Source: a virus | Lineage: Duplodnaviria > Heunggongvirae > Uroviricota > Caudoviricetes | Virus record (IMG/VR): IMGVR_UViG_2548876696_000013 | Strand: one strand, 5' to 3' | DNA length: 16,659 nucleotides | In this document: in pieces, positions 1-16,659 of the stretch | Layout of the letters: every line of letters starts with the position of its first letter | Position numbering within the stretch: the first letter of the stretch is position 1 | Translations under genes and position numbers: made by a program | Notes under the pieces: generated by a model | Databases searched by the model: none | Told to the model about the DNA's origin: nothing | The model's input: only the letters and a program-made list of their open reading frames with translations

Positions 1-1461
1 ATGAAAAAATTACTGCGTCTTTTTTTCCCGCTCTCGCTGCGGGTACGTTTTCTGTTGGCAACGGCAGCGGTAGTACTGGTGCTTTCGCTTGCCTACGGAA
101 TGGTCGCGCTGATCGGTTATAGCGTCAGTTTCGATAAAACTACGTTTCGGCTGTTACGTGGCGAGAGCAATCTGTTCTATACCCTTGCGAAGTGGGAAAA
201 CAATAAGTTGCATGTCGAGTTACCCGAAAATATCGACAAGCAAAGCCCCACCATGACGCTAATTTATGATGAGAACGGGCAGCTTTTATGGGCGCAACGT
301 GACGTGCCCTGGCTGATGAAGATGATCCAGCCTGACTGGCTGAAATCGAATGGTTTTCATGAAATTGAAGCGGATGTTAACGATACCAGCCTCTTGCTGA
401 GTGGAGATCATTCGATACAGCAACAGTTGCAGGAAGTGCGGGAAGATGATGACGACGCGGAGATGACCCACTCGGTGGCGGTAAACGTCTACCCGGCAAC
501 ATCGCGGATGCCAAAGTTAACCATTGTGGTGGTGGATACCATTCCGGTGGAGCTAAAAAGTTCCTATATGGTCTGGAGCTGGTTTATCTATGTGCTCTCA
601 GCCAATCTGCTGTTAGTGATCCCGCTGCTGTGGGTCGCCGCCTGGTGGAGTTTACGCCCCATCGAAGCCCTGGCAAAAGAAGTCCGCGAACTGGAAGAAC
701 ATAACCGCGAATTGCTCAATCCAGCCACAACGCGAGAACTGACCAGTCTGGTACGAAACCTGAACCGATTGTTAAAAAGCGAACGCGAACGTTACGACAA
801 ATACCGTACAACGCTCACCGACCTGACCCATAGTCTGAAAACGCCACTGGCGGTGCTGCAAAGTACGCTGCGTTCTCTGCGTAGTGAAAAGATGAGCGTC
901 AGTGATGCTGAACCGGTAATGCTGGAGCAAATCAGCCGCATTTCACAGCAAATTGGCTACTACCTGCATCGTGCCAGTATGCGCGGCGGGACATTGCTCA
1001 GCCGCGAGCTGCATCCGGTCGCCCCACTGCTGGACAATCTCACCTCGGCGCTGAACAAAGTGTATCAACGCAAAGGGGTCAATATCTCTCTCGATATTTC
1101 GCCAGAGATCAGCTTTGTCGGTGAGCAGAACGATTTTGTCGAGGTGATGGGCAATGTGCTGGATAATGCCTGTAAATATTGCCTCGAGTTTGTCGAAATT
1201 TCTGCAAGGCAAACCGACGAGCATCTCTATATTGTGGTCGAGGATGATGGACCCGGTATTCCATTAAGCAAGCGAGAGGTCATTTTCGACCGTGGTCAAC
1301 GGGTTGATACTTTACGCCCTGGGCAAGGTGTGGGGCTGGCGGTAGCCCGCGAAATCACCGAGCAATATGAGGGTAAAATCGTCGCCGGAGAGAGCATGCT
1401 GGGCGGTGCGCGGATGGAGGTGATTTTTGGTCGCCAGCATTCTGCGCCGAAAGATGAATAA
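1..1461 (+). CDS. phoQ: Sensor histidine kinase PhoQ, complete (486 aa)
   Basis: Full-length ORF. Translation shows two TM segments flanking a periplasmic sensor domain with the acidic patch EDDDDAE, an H-box ([10 protein letters not shown]) and ATP-binding G-boxes ([15 protein letters not shown]). Recognised from memory as enterobacterial PhoQ; not verified by search. Confidence 0.95.
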
Positions 1462-2603: not shown

Positions 2604-4265
2604 TTACACCCCGCTAAATTCTTCCAGTTTCTGGCGGTGGCTGTCGCTTATATCAAAAGCAAAATCCTCATGCTCTGCCTGGAATGTACCAAACGCCATC
2701 AGCGCCGCTACGCTCGGGTCTATCTTGTTCGGTGATTTTTTCTTGTTCGGCTTGATATTGGCGTTCGCGTCACTCTGCATCACGACGTTACTCATCGACC
2801 AGGACAACACCGGATCGCCACGATGCACAATCACCCTGCGGTTAACAAAAACTTCGAACGATTTCGCCGCCGGACTGAATCTGAGGTAGGTTTGCGGGAA
2901 CGGCTCCACCTCAAAACCAGCCCCCTGTAATTGCGTCCTGAGATGCGTGGCGTTCCACGTATCAAAGCCCACCAGCCTGATATTAAATTTCTCCGCATCC
3001 TGCATGATGTCATCTCTGATCCGGTCGTAATCAATGCAGTCACCTGGCGTTGTGCGTATCCAGCCCGCTTTAGCCCACTGGCGATAGACAGCGCGGTTTT
3101 TATTGGCGGGGTTCTGTAGCTGGAACTCCGGCAGATAATGACGGGAAACCAGCATGATATTTTTACCGACCGGAAAGGCATAGCACACGCTGGAAATATC
3201 GCTGGTTGATGATAAGTCCAGCCCCGCGTAACACTCCTGCCCGTGTAAATCTTCCTCCGTGAACGTTCCGGCACACTCAGCCCATGCGCCGTTACCCATC
3301 CACGGGGTAGCCCCCTGGCACCAGATATTAAATCGCTTTGTCATCATCTCCACCCATTGCGACGGAATACCCCGCGCTTTCTGGATGGTTGAGGCCAGTT
3401 TTTCACGATCCACGGAAACATCGATGTTAGGGTTAGCCTTTATCCACATCGCCGGATCATCAACCTCGTTTTCGTCGTCCAGCTCGTAAATCAGCACAAA
3501 AATTGAATCGTTGACCTCTTCGCCGTCCAGGATCTGGCAGCAATAATCATAGTGCTGTTTACAGGTTGAAACGACGTTACTGCCCGATGTGGTAATGGCA
3601 AATAACAGCCCTTCGGGACGTGCGCCCATCCCCAGCTCAAGCGCGGAATAAACGCCGTTATCGGGGTGTAGGTGGTATTCGTCCACGATGGAAAGGCTGG
3701 GGTTTGTTCCCTCGATGGTTGCCGCTTTTGCTGCCAGCGGCTTTAACAGGCTGTTGCTTTTCGGGTGCATCACCTTGTGGGCCTGAATATTCACCCGCCT
3801 GCGTAACGGTCGGGATAAAAGGCACATCTGACGCGCATCATCAAAAACGATCCGCGCCTGGTCACGGCTCACCGCTGCGGTGTAAATATCCTGCTGCCCG
3901 TTCTCCATAATCAGAAACCAGTTAGCCAGAATCGCGGCGGTCGTGGATTTCGCATTTTTGCGCGGCACTTCGATAAAGGCGCTCGTGTATTTGCGCCGTC
4001 CGGTGGCCTTAACCTTAAAGCCGAGGATGCACGCAAAGGCGAACTGCTGCCACGGCTCCAGCTCAATGGGTCTGCCACGCATCGGCCCTTTTACGTGCGG
4101 GCACACCCTGGAAAAGGCAATAAACCGCTCCACAACCTCACGATCGAACGTGTAAAGGGGGCTTTCAAGGTCCGAAAAGTACCGTTTAACGGCCTGTTTC
4201 AGCCGTTTACAGGCCGGAATTTTGCCCGTTTTTACGTCTTCTGCGTACTTATTCCAGGCGGTCAA
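2604..4265 (-). CDS. terL: Terminase large subunit (553 aa)
   Basis: N-terminal ATPase with Walker A-like VPRKNAKST and a C-terminal nuclease region; its start overlaps the 3' end of the TerS gene. Confidence 0.9.
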   Translation of the reverse strand: MTAWNKYAEDVKTGKIPACKRLKQAVKRYFSDLESPLYTFDREVVERFIAFSRVCPHVKGPMRGRPIELEPWQQFAFACILGFKVKATGRRKYTSAFIEVPRKNAKSTTAAILANWFLIMENGQQDIYTAAVSRDQARIVFDDARQMCLLSRPLRRRVNIQAHKVMHPKSNSLLKPLAAKAATIEGTNPSLSIVDEYHLHPDNGVYSALELGMGARPEGLLFAITTSGSNVVSTCKQHYDYCCQILDGEEVNDSIFVLIYELDDENEVDDPAMWIKANPNIDVSVDREKLASTIQKARGIPSQWVEMMTKRFNIWCQGATPWMGNGAWAECAGTFTEEDLHGQECYAGLDLSSTSDISSVCYAFPVGKNIMLVSRHYLPEFQLQNPANKNRAVYRQWAKAGWIRTTPGDCIDYDRIRDDIMQDAEKFNIRLVGFDTWNATHLRTQLQGAGFEVEPFPQTYLRFSPAAKSFEVFVNRRVIVHRGDPVLSWSMSNVVMQSDANANIKPNKKKSPNKIDPSVAALMAFGTFQAEHEDFAFDISDSHRQKLEEFSGV

Positions 4266-4605
4266 GCTCGTCCTCTTCTTCTGTTTCCGGTGGATTTTTA
4301 CGGCGGCTTATCGGGTCAAAACCGAGCAAAGAGGCCATTTTTATCATCACTCTTTCAGCGTCGGATTTTGCGCTTAATGCGGGGTTTCTGCTCTCGCCGC
4401 CCTGACTGTTAACAATGCTGAACCCGCGCGCCGCAAGGTCTGCAACGGCTTTCCGGTAAATGGAGTAGTTGACACAATACAGTTCCAGATTGCTCCAGTC
4501 GGCGGGGGTCAGGTCTCCCCGTTCCGCAAGCTGCCTAGATTTTTCCCGCCACTGCTTCACGGCGATATCATCCAGGTAGGCGGGGGCTTTCGGTGGTCTT
4601 GCCAT
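4249..4605 (-). CDS. terS: Terminase small subunit, P27-like family (118 aa)
   Basis: Small basic protein immediately upstream of and overlapping TerL. Sequence pattern resembles the P27 small-terminase family (from memory). Confidence 0.75.
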   Translation of the reverse strand: MARPPKAPAYLDDIAVKQWREKSRQLAERGDLTPADWSNLELYCVNYSIYRKAVADLAARGFSIVNSQGGESRNPALSAKSDAERVMIKMASLLGFDPISRRKNPPETEEEDELDRLE

Positions 4606-4893
4606 GCTTATTTTTCGCCAGATTATTTTTCAAAAAATTCCCGTGCATAAAAATTTGAGGAGGCGTTCGGTGCCCGGCGGGGTCGGGTTTGTCCTGAAAA
4701 CGCCCCCCACCCCGTCATACAGCCTCATCAGCGATTGCGGAAACATTCCATAACCTCGCGGTCACGGTCGGTTAATCGCTTCGCTGTGATGCGTTCTGCG
4801 CGTCCTGACGCTTTATCTTTATGCCCTGTTTCCTGTGTCTTCCATGCGTCACGCTGCCTTATAAGTCCACGGATAAGGCGGTTTTGTTCCCGC
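4606..4893 (-). other. Candidate cos / packaging-initiation region (non-coding gap between HNH and terS)
   Basis: 288-bp gap in an otherwise tightly overlapping operon. Contains a GC-rich stretch (4664-4720: gtgcccggcggggtcgggtttgtcctgaaaacgccccccaccccg). In HK97-like cos phages the cos site sits between the HNH gene and terS. Confidence 0.35.
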
Positions 4894-5334
4894 TCATTCA
4901 TCGGCGTCATACATCCAGTTATTGCGGTTAGCGGCCCGTTCTTCCTCTTCACGAAATCCACCTGCGGCACGCTTGCTTTTTGTTGCCGGATCAAGCCATT
5001 TCGTTTTCTGGTTATGACACGCCTGGCACAATGGCTGATGGTTCCATTCGGGCCAGAAGAGAACATCATCACCGCCATTAATCGGGATAATGTGATCCAC
5101 CACCACGGCGGGCGTATATATCCCCTTCTCAAGGCATCGCACGCATAACGGGTTTTTACTCAGATACATGGCGCGGTATTTGTCCCACTGTCTGGAATAT
5201 CCACGCGCGCGGCGGTGTCCTCGTCTGGCATCCTCTGCACGCCATGCCGCCCGCCTGTGCTCCTCACACTTGCCGGATTTAACGCGCCTGTTACAGCCTG
5301 GTTCTGTGCATCGTCTTAATGGTTGCCACGGCAT
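4894..5334 (-). CDS. HNH endonuclease, packaging-associated (146 aa)
   Basis: Cys-rich zinc-finger-like segments (CTEPGCNRRVKSGKCEEH, CVRCLEKG, CQACHNQK) and an HNH-like core (VVDHIIPI...WNHQPLC). Position directly upstream of the terminase genes. Confidence 0.85.
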   Translation of the reverse strand: MPWQPLRRCTEPGCNRRVKSGKCEEHRRAAWRAEDARRGHRRARGYSRQWDKYRAMYLSKNPLCVRCLEKGIYTPAVVVDHIIPINGGDDVLFWPEWNHQPLCQACHNQKTKWLDPATKSKRAAGGFREEEERAANRNNWMYDADE

Positions 5335-5630
5335 CAGTACACCCCCACATCACGGTAAGCCGTCCAGAGTGCGCCAATCGTCATGGGTACGCGTGTTTTT
5401 GCGTTATCCGCGACAATCTGGCGATTCTCATACAGGTGAGCGATAAACATCATGCAGCCAATCTTTATGGCTGGCGTGAACTCCAGCCCGTCATCAAAGC
5501 GCCTGCCTATATGTATCTGGCACGCCTCAAGCGATGCGGCAATGTATCCGCTGATTAACTGGTCTTCCTCGTCGCCATCGATACGGCAATGGAGTTTCAC
5601 TTCTTCCAGGGTGATAAGTTCTTCTGTCAT
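5334..5630 (-). CDS. Head-tail connector protein, gp6-like (98 aa)
   Basis: Size, position after the head-closure gene, and N-terminal LEEVKLHCRID motif typical of gp6-like connector proteins. Start overlaps the upstream stop by 4 nt. Confidence 0.7.
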   Translation of the reverse strand: MTEELITLEEVKLHCRIDGDEEDQLISGYIAASLEACQIHIGRRFDDGLEFTPAIKIGCMMFIAHLYENRQIVADNAKTRVPMTIGALWTAYRDVGVY

Positions 5631-5965
5631 TTTTCCGCGCCCTCACGACAAAGAATTTCAAGGCGTGTCCTGGCGGCATCCGGCAGCGGCTGCCCGATGA
5701 TATTCAGTACACGCCCCGCCAGCGGCCCCGTATTGACCTTTATCCGGCTGGTGGCGCTGATGTCCTTCCGGTACCGTATCCAGATCCTTACGGTACCAAT
5801 CGCCAGCTCTGCACCCGATGAAATGGCCTCCTTGCTGCTGACCATGTTCACGCTTGCCCAGAGTGTGTGACTGTCCTCCCACGTTTCGAGTATTTCGCCA
5901 GTTATATCCCTGGTCTGTTTCAGGGTCTGAATCGTTACCCTGTCACGCAGTCGCCCTATGTTCAT
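5627..5965 (-). CDS. Head closure / head-tail adaptor protein (112 aa from the internal start MNIGRLRDRVTIQ)
   Basis: The start chosen is the ATG overlapping the portal stop (ATGA at 5962-5965). The GRLRDRVTIQ motif is typical of this family. The longer ORF reaching 6007 would overlap the portal gene. Confidence 0.65.
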   Translation of the reverse strand: MNIGRLRDRVTIQTLKQTRDITGEILETWEDSHTLWASVNMVSSKEAISSGAELAIGTVRIWIRYRKDISATSRIKVNTGPLAGRVLNIIGQPLPDAARTRLEILCREGAEK

Positions 5966-7173
5966 TCCGGTTTTTCTCCCTCGCTGATTTTTACTTCCTG
6001 TTTCCATGCCTGGCTGAACTCATCACCACCATCACGCGGGGACAGCCCTTCACGTTCGCGGGCTTCGTTCGGGCACATAACGCCGGATTTGATACCGCGC
6101 TCATAGGTGGCAAAGCGTTCGCCAGGTGTGGCCCGTAACAGGTCCGCGCTGTCAAACTCCACCTGATACCGGATACCAGGTACAGGCGAGGCCACCAGCA
6201 GGGCGTTTTTTATCTGCTGCTCAAAGTTCGCCAGCCACGGGCGCATCGTCATGGTGAGAAATGCGCGGCTTGCCTCGCTGAAATTGCTGTAGGTGCTGTT
6301 GCTGTATTCCTGCAAAAAAATCGGCGAGACGTTGAACATTCGGGCGATGTCTTCAATGGTGAAGCGACGGGAGGCCAGCCATTCAGCATCCTGGTTACTC
6401 ATGCCCAGCTGCTGGTAACTCATGCCACCTTCAAGGATGGGCGTTTTTCCGGCGTTTCTGGCCCCTTTATAGCGTTCCAGTGCGGCTAATGCCTGTTTGC
6501 CCTTCACGCCGTCCAGCCATTCGCCTGACGTGATAACCCCTGCCGCCATCATGCCATCACGCATCACGCTCGCGCCGTGGCGTTGTTGGGCCAGCCCAAG
6601 CCCCAGCGATTCGCGGCAGATGGTTACAGGTGAGCGCCCCATAAAACCGTCATCCGTGGAGTAACGAAGGTGGAGAACCTCCCACGGTAAATAGTTGCGG
6701 GTGTTTCCGGTGTAGGCGTCAGTGATGCAGTAGCGCCAGTTATGCTCACCTGTCTGCTCCACGTTCACCGACTGCGGCGGGTAAGGATGTAAAGCCACCG
6801 GAAAACCATCACGCCCCCACTGAATCACCGCATAAGCATTACCGTTTAACAGGCAGTGGCGGATCATCATTCGCTTAAACTGGTAGGGGGTTTGCCATGC
6901 GTTCGGGCGCTCGTTGAGGATGTGATCGACCGGATGAGAATCAAGCCACTCGCGGGCCACCTTCCCCTTCTCATTGCGTACCAGGTACAGGTAACACGGC
7001 ATGGTAGCCACCGCCTCAGAGATGACCGTGACGGCGTTCATGACGGCGGGCAGTGATTCCGCTGTCCCCGATGATACGTACTCACCCGCCCCCGTGTTCG
7101 ATGTGCCAGCCAGCGCCATAAATTCATCAAGCGTCATGCTGCGCTGCTCTTTTTTTCTTCTGAAAGGCCACAT
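5962..7173 (-). CDS. Portal protein, HK97 family (403 aa)
   Basis: Size and position between the protease and adaptor genes; HK97-type portal sequence pattern from memory. Confidence 0.85.
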   Translation of the reverse strand: MWPFRRKKEQRSMTLDEFMALAGTSNTGAGEYVSSGTAESLPAVMNAVTVISEAVATMPCYLYLVRNEKGKVAREWLDSHPVDHILNERPNAWQTPYQFKRMMIRHCLLNGNAYAVIQWGRDGFPVALHPYPPQSVNVEQTGEHNWRYCITDAYTGNTRNYLPWEVLHLRYSTDDGFMGRSPVTICRESLGLGLAQQRHGASVMRDGMMAAGVITSGEWLDGVKGKQALAALERYKGARNAGKTPILEGGMSYQQLGMSNQDAEWLASRRFTIEDIARMFNVSPIFLQEYSNSTYSNFSEASRAFLTMTMRPWLANFEQQIKNALLVASPVPGIRYQVEFDSADLLRATPGERFATYERGIKSGVMCPNEAREREGLSPRDGGDEFSQAWKQEVKISEGEKPE

Positions 7174-7174
7174 A

Positions 7175-7747
7175 TCACACCCCCGCTAAATCCACCCACC
7201 AGCGGCGATTATCCGCACGCGGCATTTTTTCGGGGTGCTGCTCATACAGGGAACGGCGGGCCAGCTCCACGCCGGAATCAGGGTAAGCCGGAACGGATGT
7301 AACGGTAATTTCGTACAGTTCCGCCACCAGCACGGTGCGCACGCATGGTTCTGTTGTGGTATCCCATACATCCTTACGGGAACGAAAGCCAAAGCTCATG
7401 CCGGATATATCACCACGTTTAACCAGTTCGATAACGTCCCGCCCTGTGCTGGTATCCGGTGGGGTCAGTTCAAAGCGTAACCCTGTTTCGTCCTCTTCCA
7501 GTTTCAGCGTGCCGGAACGGGTACGCCCCAGTAACATGCTGTGGTCATGCTCATACAGGCCGCGAACGTCATTACCCGCCGCAAGCCATTCAGTAAACGC
7601 TCCCCGCTGGAATTTTTCGTAAAACTCACCCCATAACAGTTCTGAAAGCTTATCCCAGCGAACAACGTAGCCCGTCAGCGTACCGGCTCCGCTGGTGGTG
7701 ATTTCCGATGACCGGATTTCCATACTCTTCATAATTTTTTCACCCAT
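7175..7747 (-). CDS. Prohead maturation protease, HK97 family (start ambiguous among ATGs at 7747, 7732 and 7723)
   Basis: Conserved protease-family pattern (GYVVRWDK ... HD ... LLGRT ... GLRFE ... ISGMSFGF). The first ATG lies inside the upstream terminator tract, so the true start is probably one of the next two. Confidence 0.8.
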   Translation of the reverse strand: MGEKIMKSMEIRSSEITTSGAGTLTGYVVRWDKLSELLWGEFYEKFQRGAFTEWLAAGNDVRGLYEHDHSMLLGRTRSGTLKLEEDETGLRFELTPPDTSTGRDVIELVKRGDISGMSFGFRSRKDVWDTTTEPCVRTVLVAELYEITVTSVPAYPDSGVELARRSLYEQHPEKMPRADNRRWWVDLAGV

Positions 7748-7786: not shown

Positions 7787-8944
7787 TTAATCGTCGTCCT
7801 GTGGCAGTTCCAGAATCTTGATCGCGTTCGAATCCACCACGCCACCGCCTAAATATTTCTGCGTGAAAATTTTGATGAAGCCCGGCTCTGTGAGGTTGTC
7901 CGGTCTGGTGCGAACACCTGTTTCGTGATCAACAATGTAGTAACCGCGTTTGAAGTCACCCAGGGCAATAACGTTATCAGGCATAAACTCCAGATATTCG
8001 ACCGGAAGGCCCAGCAACGTATCAGGATCACCCGCCTGTAAACGGTCGCGCCAGATGTAATCACCGTTCGCGTTCTTCACCTTCTGAAGTTTTGCCGCCG
8101 TCGTGGAGTTAACCACCCAGACCGCGTTTTTGCGGTATTTTTTACGTAATGCAAATTTCAGGTCGATCAACGGGTCCGCAGATGTCCACGCCAGAGATTC
8201 GGAAGGTTTAATTACCTGCAACGTACCAAAATCACGCTCTTTGTCGTTCTTCTCTGCACGGGGTACGGATAAAAAGCCTTTTGCTTTTTTGTCACCGTCG
8301 CCCACAACCAGATCGCTTTCTTCGGTTTCCGTGAAGGTGTCGCCAATCTCACCCGTCAGCCATGAAAGGATGTCCACATCGGAAAAATCCACGATTTCCT
8401 GTGTGGTGCGCGGGTACGCATAGACCGGATACAGCTTAATGCTCACCTCGTTAATCTGCGGGGTGCTGGTCTGTTCGCGTGTCTTACCCTCTTCACCGTG
8501 GTTAACGGTCGCACCGCCAGCGGAAACAAGCTGCTTAAACTCGTTGCTGCTGATTTTCTTCACGGTACAGATGCGGCGCATGGTGGACTCATCCGCCAGC
8601 ATTCGCATGATTTCGGTGTTCAGCTCGGGGATAACGGTATAACCACCATCAGCGGGAACGCCTGTACTTAATGCGCGGGTTTCACCCGTCAGAATGTAGT
8701 TTCGTAGTTCTGCGGGGTCAGTGGTCTGACTGCTTTTACCTGGCTTGCTGCGCTCTTCGTCTGCAATGGCTTCAAGGCGGGAAATGTCTTTATCGAGGGA
8801 TTCAGCTTTAGCGCGTAATTCGTCAAATTTTGCGCCCTCAGCATCGTTAAGACTGCGGTTTTCTTTTTCCGCGTTCTCCAGCATGTCGCGCATCTGATTT
8901 TTAATGGCGGTTTTCTGCTGGCGTAATTCGATTATTCTCGGCAT
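7787..8944 (-). CDS. Major capsid protein, HK97 fold, with N-terminal coiled-coil delta (scaffold) domain (385 aa)
   Basis: N-terminal 100 aa are charged and helical (delta-domain-like), followed by a capsid-like body. First gene of the head operon. Confidence 0.9.
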   Translation of the reverse strand: MPRIIELRQQKTAIKNQMRDMLENAEKENRSLNDAEGAKFDELRAKAESLDKDISRLEAIADEERSKPGKSSQTTDPAELRNYILTGETRALSTGVPADGGYTVIPELNTEIMRMLADESTMRRICTVKKISSNEFKQLVSAGGATVNHGEEGKTREQTSTPQINEVSIKLYPVYAYPRTTQEIVDFSDVDILSWLTGEIGDTFTETEESDLVVGDGDKKAKGFLSVPRAEKNDKERDFGTLQVIKPSESLAWTSADPLIDLKFALRKKYRKNAVWVVNSTTAAKLQKVKNANGDYIWRDRLQAGDPDTLLGLPVEYLEFMPDNVIALGDFKRGYYIVDHETGVRTRPDNLTEPGFIKIFTQKYLGGGVVDSNAIKILELPQDDD

Positions 8945-12129: not shown

Positions 12130-12425
12130 TTTTTACCCCTGAATACGTTCAACATCTTTCTTATTTCCTGAATATTGGCGCGTGCTTTCTCCCTGCTGGT
12201 GGGCACGTTACGCGGTACAGCCTGCACCAGAGAAAAATCACGGTCGAACTGATAAACAGGCATAACGCAATCATATTCGTAGCCTTCACGGCGGTAAGTT
12301 ACGCGCCGTTCCTCCACGCCCTTAATCATTACCGTGCCGCCGTACTGGTCGCGGTAAATATCACCGCGCGTAAATTTAGGGTGAGTGTTGCCACTGGCAG
12401 TTAAGCCAGGATATTTAAGTTTCAT
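12126..12425 (-). CDS. DUF4222-like small protein (99 aa)
   Basis: The pattern GDIYRDQYGGTVMIKGVEERRVTYRREGYEYDCVMPVYQF resembles the DUF4222 family often found next to satellite or prophage replication genes (from memory). ATGA overlap with the rep gene. Confidence 0.55.
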   Translation of the reverse strand: MKLKYPGLTASGNTHPKFTRGDIYRDQYGGTVMIKGVEERRVTYRREGYEYDCVMPVYQFDRDFSLVQAVPRNVPTSREKARANIQEIRKMLNVFRGKK

Positions 12426-15429: not shown

Positions 15430-16659
15430 TTATTTTATTCTGGTTACTGGTAGCGTGGTTACGTTTTCATGTGTTCCCGCCAGTATCTCCAACCGCTCCA
15501 CCCACATATCAAGCGCATTGCGTTTCGCATCAATATAGCGGGAATGGTTGTACACGCGTTGCATTCCTGGCATCTGGTGGCCTGTAAGCTGCTCCACGAC
15601 GTGAGGATCAACGCCTAAATCGTTCAGCATGGTTGTAAAGGTGCGCCGGATGTCATGCAGTGACCAGTGAGGGTGTTTAAGCCTCCTGTGCACCAATCTG
15701 CCGTACTGCGATACGCTGGTTTCCTGTTTCACTTCCCCCAGCAATAAGCCCGTGTGCCTGTTCTGCTCCACCAGCTGCGTGACGAACGGCAGTATCGCTT
15801 CCGGTATGGGCCGGAATATGGCTACCTTCGTTTTGCTGTGCTCCTTCGGAACGGTCCAGAGCATTTCGGTAAAATCCCACTCGCCGATCTCCGATAACCT
15901 CAGTTCTACTGTCCGGCATCCGAAAACAATCAGGAGGCGGATTAGTGCGACGTAGTAAGGGGAAAATATTTTTTTGTCCAGTGCCTGCAATAATTCGCCA
16001 AGTTCTTTGTTACTTAAGACACGCTCACTTATATCCGGTTTTTTCCCAACGTCCGCCACACTCATATCATCAAGAACGTTGCTGATTGCATAGCGCCGCT
16101 TCCTGCAGAACTTAAGCGCCTGCTTGCATGTCTGTAGCAGGAACCCGGCGGAAACAGGGGCTTTCTTTGCCACCCGATCAAAACAGGCCAGCCAGTGCCG
16201 TAGCTCGCATTTATCCAGCGGCATAGGGCCAATGTGCTGTATTACGTGATTATTTAGCCGCTTTTTCAGTGGGTCATAATCCACACGGTTTTCCTTTGCG
16301 TACGACTCAAGCCAGTAGGTGAGCGCATCGCCAACCGTTACCGGCTTTAACGCTTCCTGTACGGTGTAATTCATTTCATGACGTGGATTTTTCCCCTCTG
16401 CCAGCCATGCGCGACACTGGGCGGCTTTTTCCCTGGCTGATTTCAGGCTCAGATCAGGATAATTTCCCAGCTTAATGCGTTCCGGTGGTGCCCCCCTTCC
16501 CGTTCCGGCCCTGTAAGTGAAATACCAGGTTAAAAGGCCACTGGTTGAATGCCTGACGCTCAGGTTTCCACCGTCATTAAGAAAGGCTGTTTTTTGGGCG
16601 GGTGTGCCGTTGATTTTCCTCAGCTGTGTATCGCTCAGTTTGTTAAGTGCTCTGCTCAT
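15430..16659 (-). CDS. int: Tyrosine site-specific integrase, P4-like (409 aa; start codon is the last three bases of the window)
   Basis: N-terminal arm-binding-like region (LSDTQLRKI ... DGGNLSVRHSTSGLLTWYFTYR) and a C-terminal catalytic region with conserved R, HxxR and Y (HDIRRTF ... YNHSRYID). The upstream RBS is outside the window, so the true start could lie further out. Confidence 0.9.
   Translation of the reverse strand: MSRALNKLSDTQLRKINGTPAQKTAFLNDGGNLSVRHSTSGLLTWYFTYRAGTGRGAPPERIKLGNYPDLSLKSAREKAAQCRAWLAEGKNPRHEMNYTVQEALKPVTVGDALTYWLESYAKENRVDYDPLKKRLNNHVIQHIGPMPLDKCELRHWLACFDRVAKKAPVSAGFLLQTCKQALKFCRKRRYAISNVLDDMSVADVGKKPDISERVLSNKELGELLQALDKKIFSPYYVALIRLLIVFGCRTVELRLSEIGEWDFTEMLWTVPKEHSKTKVAIFRPIPEAILPFVTQLVEQNRHTGLLLGEVKQETSVSQYGRLVHRRLKHPHWSLHDIRRTFTTMLNDLGVDPHVVEQLTGHQMPGMQRVYNHSRYIDAKRNALDMWVERLEILAGTHENVTTLPVTRIK

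Follow-up and report, generated by a model that had tools for sequence, protein, structure and literature searches.

A candidate HK97-type cos site between the HNH and terS genes of an Escherichia coli cf-PICI

Organization of the packaging operon

The window, the whole stretch of 16,659 nucleotides analysed here (IMG/VR record IMGVR_UViG_2548876696_000013), is an E. coli capsid-forming phage-inducible chromosomal island (cf-PICI) that adjoins phoQ and is close to the copies found in O157:H7 strains. Islands of this type are defined as elements of 10-18 kb that carry an integrase, a replication module and genes for capsid, protease, portal, connectors, HNH, TerS and TerL, without tail or lysis genes (Alqurainy et al. 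2022 and He et al. 2025, preprints). The window contains the packaging module together with RefSeq-annotated genes for a RepA-family helicase, SSB and PerC, and a check of its gene content revealed no tail or lysis genes. Its organization matches that of the cf-PICIs EcCIEDL933 and KpCIDSM30104, which display the same capsid-protease-portal-connectors-HNH-terS-terL order with int at the other end, again without tail and lysis functions. Of 5426 complete E. coli genomes, 515 contain the stretch extending from HNH through the gap to terS; the O157:H7 copies share 97 % identity with the window in the region compared. Coordinates of the genes and of the features described below are presented in Table 1.

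Table 1. Genes and sequence features of the window, ordered by position
Feature	Position	Strand	Basis or remark
phoQ	1-1461		
Hypothetical protein, 93 aa	2309-2590	minus	
terL, 553 aa, HK97-type large terminase	2604-4265	minus	Pfam TerL_ATPase and TerL_nuclease
terS, 118 aa, P27 family/Terminase_4	4249-4605	minus	Pfam Terminase_4, E 1.3e-23; phrog_83
True intergenic region, 122 bp, holding the candidate cos site	4606-4727	minus	
Conserved element (candidate cos), ~90 nt	4624-4713	minus	Alignment of 71 non-identical copies
Right arm of imperfect dyad, CGGGAATTTTTTGAAAA	4627-4643	minus	Inverted repeat, 17 nt, 71 % complementary
Predicted TerS-binding site, ATGCACGGGAATTTTTTG	4631-4648	minus	Aligns with HK97 +15..+29, CTAACCCGATTTTTT
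Predicted cleavage region (cosN), junction of C-rich block GCACCGAACGCCTCC and TCAAATTTTT	4655-4670		HK97 alignment, dyad, lysate-contig gap
Left arm of imperfect dyad, TTTTCAGGACAAACCCG	4684-4700	minus	Inverted repeat, 17 nt, 71 % complementary
G-run, GGGGTGGGGGG, upstream boundary block	4703-4713	minus	Aligns with G-run 45-55 nt upstream of HK97 nick
Small conserved gene, 57 aa, start ATGAATGAG	4728-4901	minus	phrog_3173; RefSeq-annotated
HNH endonuclease, 146 aa, homologue of HK97 gp74	4894-5334	minus	Pfam HNH, E 1.8e-08
Head-tail connector	5334-5630	minus	
Head closure	5627-6007	minus	
Portal	5962-7173	minus	
Prohead protease	7175-7747	minus	
Major capsid	7787-8944	minus	First in transcription order
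ORF, 409 aa, taken as integrase	15430-16659		Position and size only

The initial annotation had singled out the 288-bp interval between HNH and terS (4606-4893) as the only sizeable gap in an operon of overlapping or closely spaced genes, and the gene coordinates agree with both statements: this spacing is the largest of the operon and all other junctions are of 39 bp or less, or overlap. The GC-rich segment noted within the interval is likewise real, since positions 4664-4720 comprise 68 % GC compared with 33 % in 4606-4663 and 51 % in the whole window. In contrast, the description of the gap as non-coding has to be corrected, as more than half of it is occupied by a small conserved gene whose product matches phrog_3173 (function unknown) over the full 57-position profile (E 7.5e-37), and which is also annotated in RefSeq. 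At its start the gene overlaps the end of HNH, stop codon included, by 8 nt; the RefSeq pipeline PGAP places the start at 4910, giving a protein of 60 aa. The true intergenic stretch is thus 122 bp long, which is still the largest spacing in the operon.

The 57-aa protein is basic, and a homologue search using its sequence returned exclusively matches termed "hypothetical protein", with no functional lead. The gene is kept in many Enterobacterales genera, where the C-terminus (..RDRE..ECFRNR-stop) is retained and the middle of the protein has diverged. Its stop codon usually precedes the conserved G-run of the intergenic region by 15 nt (range 2-22 nt). The gene is missing from most Xenorhabdus and Photorhabdus islands as well as from those of Gilliamella and Pasteurella, and in islands lacking it HNH ends right before the G-run. 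In EcCIEDL933, mutation of "hypothetical gene 1792" lowered island transfer; the small gene described here may or may not be its equivalent.

Anatomy and conservation of the intergenic element

The 150 nt upstream of terS were collected from 80 species-representative genomes identified through a TerS alignment, from the Pasteurella island Pmp8 and from diverged E. coli lineages, yielding 71 non-identical copies that align readily and define a conserved element of ~90 nt. The element is located upstream of terS in ~70 islands of Enterobacterales, Pasteurellales, Orbales and Aeromonas, including the genera Escherichia, Klebsiella, Citrobacter, Serratia, Erwinia, Xenorhabdus, Photorhabdus, Proteus, Gilliamella, Avibacterium, Pasteurella and Aeromonas, and it begins directly after the preceding gene, be it HNH or the small ORF. 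Its consensus reads GGGGTGGGGG..TTTCAGGAC/TCAAAAATGAC-AAA-(~15 variable)-GGMACCGCCCCCTCCTCAAATTTTTAYGCACGGYA-TTTTTTTGAAAATA. Four blocks are strongly conserved, namely the G-run, GAC.AA, GGMACCGCCCCCTCCTCAAATTTTTAYGCACGG and TTTTTTTGAAAATA, with the ~15 nt between GACAAA and GGMACC varying freely. In the window the intergenic sequence, written in the direction of transcription, is GGGGTGGGGGGCG TTTTCAGGACAAACCCG ACCCCGCCGG GCACCGAACGCCTCC TCAAATTTTTATG CACGGGAATTTTTTG AAAAATAA ... ATG(terS), and its element differs from the O157:H7 copy solely by one A within a run close to terS. In this sequence the C-rich block spans 4659-4673, TCAAATTTTT spans 4646-4658 and the T-tract, inside the predicted TerS site, spans 4632-4637.

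Over a 54-column core, the copies display a mean identity to the window of 76 %, which equals the amino-acid identity of TerS (76 %), compared with 51 % at terS third-codon positions. These identities indicate purifying selection on the intergenic element. A single copy is present in the window (nhmmer, 72 bits at 4624-4713), and the next match scores 8.9 bits. This second-best match, weak and partial, at 12356-12398 on the minus strand (E 0.021), comprises the half of the element assigned below to TerS, as TTACGCGCGGTGATATTT, and lies in the replication and regulation part of the island; it is probably a chance similarity.

Two arms of an imperfect dyad flank the middle of the element, with the centre of symmetry at position 4663.5. 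In other lineages shorter arms, TTTTCA/TGAAAA or TCAAAAA/TTTTTGA, are visible by eye. ATCAA motifs were considered by eye as possible IHF sites; they do not match the consensus WATCAANNNNTTR.

Several lineage-specific features were observed around the element. In the window, two copies of GAAAAATAA, spaced 15 nt apart, are located in the interval from the conserved core to the terS ATG (4608-4631, minus strand). This repeat was observed in no lineage but the E. coli one to which the window belongs; that lineage is also devoid of the AAGGA ribosome-binding motif that most lineages display ~10 nt before the terS ATG. In Xenorhabdus hominickii, the G-run upstream of terS is expanded to five tandem GGGGTA units (GGGGTAGGGGTAGGGGTAGGGGTAGGGG), which could form a G-quadruplex. 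The island of Shigella flexneri SFBU1023 carries a 90-bp deletion between two CCCCGCC repeats that removes the cos core and the first ~8 codons of terS; the remainder of this copy is 99 % identical to the window, and the island is probably decayed and immobile.

The location of the element directly upstream of terS, followed in most lineages by the AAGGA motif, would also suit a sequence that serves exclusively in the control of terS and terL and not in packaging, either as a leader or as a terminator or attenuator in which G-run/C-run pairing is followed by a U-tract. The G-run and the C-rich block can indeed pair, and UCAAAUUUUUA follows. Such a role is nonetheless very unlikely as the sole function. 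The RNA strand folds no better than shuffled sequences (z = -0.45), RNAalifold identified only a 5-bp stem (-2.9 kcal/mol) and no helix supported by covariation, and a terminator and promoter scan gave no match on the coding strand. In addition, it is the primary sequence that is conserved, including blocks unable to pair, and a control element would leave unexplained both the co-linear match to HK97 cos and the breaks in lysate-derived contigs described in the following section. A secondary regulatory role may exist alongside packaging.

Comparison with HK97 cos and with lysate-derived records

HK97 provides a mapped reference for the arrangement. Its genome record starts at the cos nick, with terS beginning at +50 and HNH ending 319 nt before the right end; the TerS site was mapped to +15..+29 (CTAACCCGATTTTTT, with an A-tract) and a 10-nt overhang was reported. 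A profile HMM built from the 71 island elements was searched against the whole HK97 genome, rotated such that the junction was internal, on both strands. The best match genome-wide was the mapped cos junction, on the correct strand and co-linear over model positions 3-82 (E 0.017), with a similarity that is low on an absolute scale (10.3 bits). Of 300 genomes simulated with the dinucleotide content of HK97, 7 attained the score of the junction at any position; considering that the match falls at the one expected place and strand, a chance similarity is very unlikely.

The blocks aligned with HK97 are the G-run, ATCAAA..CAAAAC, GACCGCCGCC and GAATTT.ACGC..CGATTTTTTT, the last of which is the mapped HK97 TerS site; it aligns with ACGCACGG.AATTTTTT at 4631-4648 of the window. 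The HK97 nick aligns between the two C residues of GCCTC/CTCAAA, corresponding to window position 4660/4659, where the alignment posterior allows a shift of ~5 nt and the predicted cleavage position is uncertain by ~8 nt. In both systems the site lies at the junction of HNH with terS-terL, with the small ORF intervening between HNH and the site in the island, and the nick is located 49 nt before the terS ATG in HK97 compared with ~54 nt predicted in the island. The order of blocks is also shared, comprising a G-run, ~45 nt, a C/G-rich nick region and an A/T-tract site 15-30 nt downstream.

Two of the three packaging enzymes are homologous to those of HK97 (Hendrixvirinae). The island TerL is 27 % identical to HK97 gp2 (E 5e-47); in the PDB, its sequence matches HK97 TerL (6Z6D) alone. 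The island HNH is 39 % identical to gp74 over 85 aa (E 2e-19). In contrast, comparison of the island TerS, a member of the P27/Terminase_4 family, with HK97 TerS revealed no detectable similarity (phrog_83 and phrog_5601, respectively), and the similarity of the two sites is marginal. As the two TerS proteins are unrelated, the TerS site transferred to the island by alignment with that of HK97 is a putative one. The systems differ further in that HK97 termini have been mapped, whereas the island site is predicted from sequence comparison, and in that the island presents capsid...HNH-cos-terS-terL in one operon of a tail-less satellite.

The resemblance to HK97 cos raises the question of whether the site could be a copy of the cos of a helper phage, used by the helper terminase as in P4 or in cos-type SaPIs. 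The helper HK106, with its HK97-style gene numbering, may well be an HK97-like phage. This explanation is nevertheless extremely improbable. The resemblance amounts to 10 bits and the TerS-site halves differ (ACGCACGGCA-T7 in one and CTAACCCGA-T7 in the other), and the element adjoins island-type terS in distant genera. HNH, terS and terL of EcCIEDL933 are each needed for island transfer, which is abolished in the island mutants, while their helper counterparts are not needed, helper terminase and HNH mutants leaving transfer unaffected. In Staphylococcus aureus, the work of Quiles-Puchalt et al. from 2014 is said to describe, for phi12/phiSLT and SaPIbov5, a cos adjoining terS and an HNH-dependent packaging that is exploited by the satellite. 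SaPIbov5 carries the cos of its helper and uses the helper's enzymes, in contrast to the cf-PICI, which has its own enzymes and, on the reading preferred here, its own site.

Records obtained from lysates of Klebsiella suggest where such islands are opened. GenBank LR881103 (vB_KppS-Ant, hereafter Ant) is a 16,548-bp linear record derived from a lysate on K. pneumoniae DSM 30104 through a Nextera XT library and SPAdes assembly, with no re-orientation step described, and was published as a filamentous ssDNA prophage of a novel genus with MF417951 as its closest relative (PMC8006926). The genes it carries, for capsid, protease, portal, connectors, HNH, TerS and TerL, identify it as a cf-PICI, so the published description as filamentous ssDNA is wrong. 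Judged by the host strain, after which KpCIDSM30104 is named, Ant is most likely that island. The record is an unedited SPAdes contig that starts 22 nt before terS and ends ...GGTTTTCAGGAC. In the chromosome of K. pneumoniae ATCC 13883, which we take to be the same strain as DSM 30104, both flanks are 100 % identical to Ant (1409/1409 and 1876/1876) and 69 nt, GAACACGAGGGCGCCAGGCACCACCCGCCCCCTCAAATTTTTTCGCACGGTGATTTTTTTGAAAATAAA, are found in addition between the two record ends. The absent nucleotides correspond to window positions 4628-4690, the right end of Ant corresponding to 4691 and the left end to ~4627. The mid-record position of the integrase indicates that the sequenced molecules were excised islands that had been opened within the gap rather than at att. 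In tagmentation libraries, the terminal tens of bases of linear DNA go missing. A terminus at the predicted nick would produce the nearly symmetric loss seen here, of 31 and 38 nt on its two sides, with the reservation that contig ends from such a library place termini only within ~70 nt.

A second record, PQ569648 ("Klebsiella phage P12620-1", 106.5 kb), contains a cf-PICI 88 % identical to Ant in its last 15.9 kb (90645-106503). This segment begins at terS codon 2 and reaches the final codons of the small ORF, such that the same intergenic stretch is absent. Exactly at terS codon 2 the island gives way to unrelated phage sequence, and the record as a whole looks chimeric. In these Klebsiella relatives the lysate-derived contigs are interrupted no further than ~35 nt from the predicted nick. 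The breaks do not reflect a sequencing failure, as the element is traversed without interruption in ~70 bacterial genomes, draft and complete, and in ~60 metagenome contigs.

Other contig collections were less informative. Scans of IMG/VR using the TerS protein and a DNA pattern of the core, performed for viral contigs ending in the element, gave no informative ends, the matches being mostly prophage regions excised from isolate genomes. A metagenome scan yielded ~60 true copies, nearly all of them continuous across the element, and no clear group of contigs sharing a single terminal nucleotide. The retrieved stretch of one metagenome contig, JAEHJW020008655.1, ends at CAAATTTTTAC, a possible contig end at most 11 nt before GCACGG and within 1-3 nt of the predicted nick. 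Draft contigs of Xenorhabdus khoisanae that start 25-45 nt before terS were rejected as evidence for termini because that genome holds several copies, and the starts are attributed to repeat-induced assembly breaks. Acinetobacter phage AbIPP1 was likewise set aside, its record having been rotated so as to begin at terS.

Contig breaks alone cannot separate a sharp pac cut from cos, and small-terminase recognition sites are often located in or near terS, so that headful packaging could in principle start from a pac site at this position without defined cohesive ends. This alternative is highly improbable in view of the enzymes and of the records. TerL is of the HK97 type, with HK97 TerL as its sole sequence relative in the PDB, and a packaging HNH gene, the hallmark of HK97-like cos systems, is present. 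Comparison of the record ends of Ant revealed no terminal overlap or redundancy; the contig misses the junction sequence rather than assembling as a circle, and its lack of overlap together with the 69 missing nt indirectly contradicts the terminal redundancy and circular permutation of a pac genome. Finally, packaged KpCIDSM30104 DNA displays a high-molecular-weight band that its authors ascribed to annealed cohesive cos ends, which implies concatemers.

Proposed packaging mechanism and its meaning

Position, conservation, the match to HK97 cos, the breaks in lysate-derived contigs and the published genetics together favour the proposal, already put forward in the initial annotation, that the gap holds the island's own cos. 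We estimate a probability of about 0.8 that the 122-bp stretch carries an HK97-type cos site belonging to the island itself. The predicted site comprises more than the GC-rich block, with the nick expected at the GC/AT boundary (~4655-4670). The AT-rich half (4624-4658) is probably the part bound by TerS. In the preprints on EcCIEDL933 and KpCIDSM30104 (Alqurainy et al. 2022 and He et al. 2025), no mapping or description of the site was found; they show self-packaging and speak of cos ends, and the position is proposed in the present analysis.

The following sequence of events can be envisaged. After excision, replication of the island would generate concatemers, on which the island TerS (P27 family) would bind the AT-rich half, ..ACGCACGG..TTTTTTT.., at ~4624-4648. 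Bound TerS would position the island TerL, assisted by HNH, to introduce staggered nicks ~15 nt upstream, where the C-rich block meets TCAAATTTTT (~4655-4670). The DNA would then be pumped into the small capsid made by the island in the order terS, terL and onwards to HNH, and cleavage at the next cos would release unit-length molecules of ~15-16 kb bearing short cohesive ends. Of the sequences flanking the nick, the G-run and the TTTTCA../..TGAAAA dyad are probably part of a recognition or termination signal. Within this model we infer the exact nick positions, the overhang, the pairing of each protein with its block and the activity of the copy in the window.

A more far-reaching proposal, which we regard as rather unlikely, is that the element constitutes a family-wide, cf-PICI-specific cos whose nick half would descend from an HK97-like ancestor, and whose TerS half would have been re-tuned for an unrelated P27-type TerS, rendering helper and satellite packaging mutually exclusive. 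The phrog_3173 protein would then be a lineage-specific accessory factor acting at this site.

For the window itself, the analysis places an expected site at the expected place in a known satellite family. The wider interest lies in the broad distribution of cf-PICIs, satellites that produce capsids of their own and pass between species. A defined consensus with predicted nick and TerS sites would help to find active islands and to tell them from decayed ones, such as the Shigella copy with its 90-bp deletion, and would aid the correct reading of the ends of virome contigs. The consensus would also allow the design of cos plasmids for cf-PICI-based DNA delivery, as well as tests of how satellite and helper packaging are kept separate despite related cos sites.
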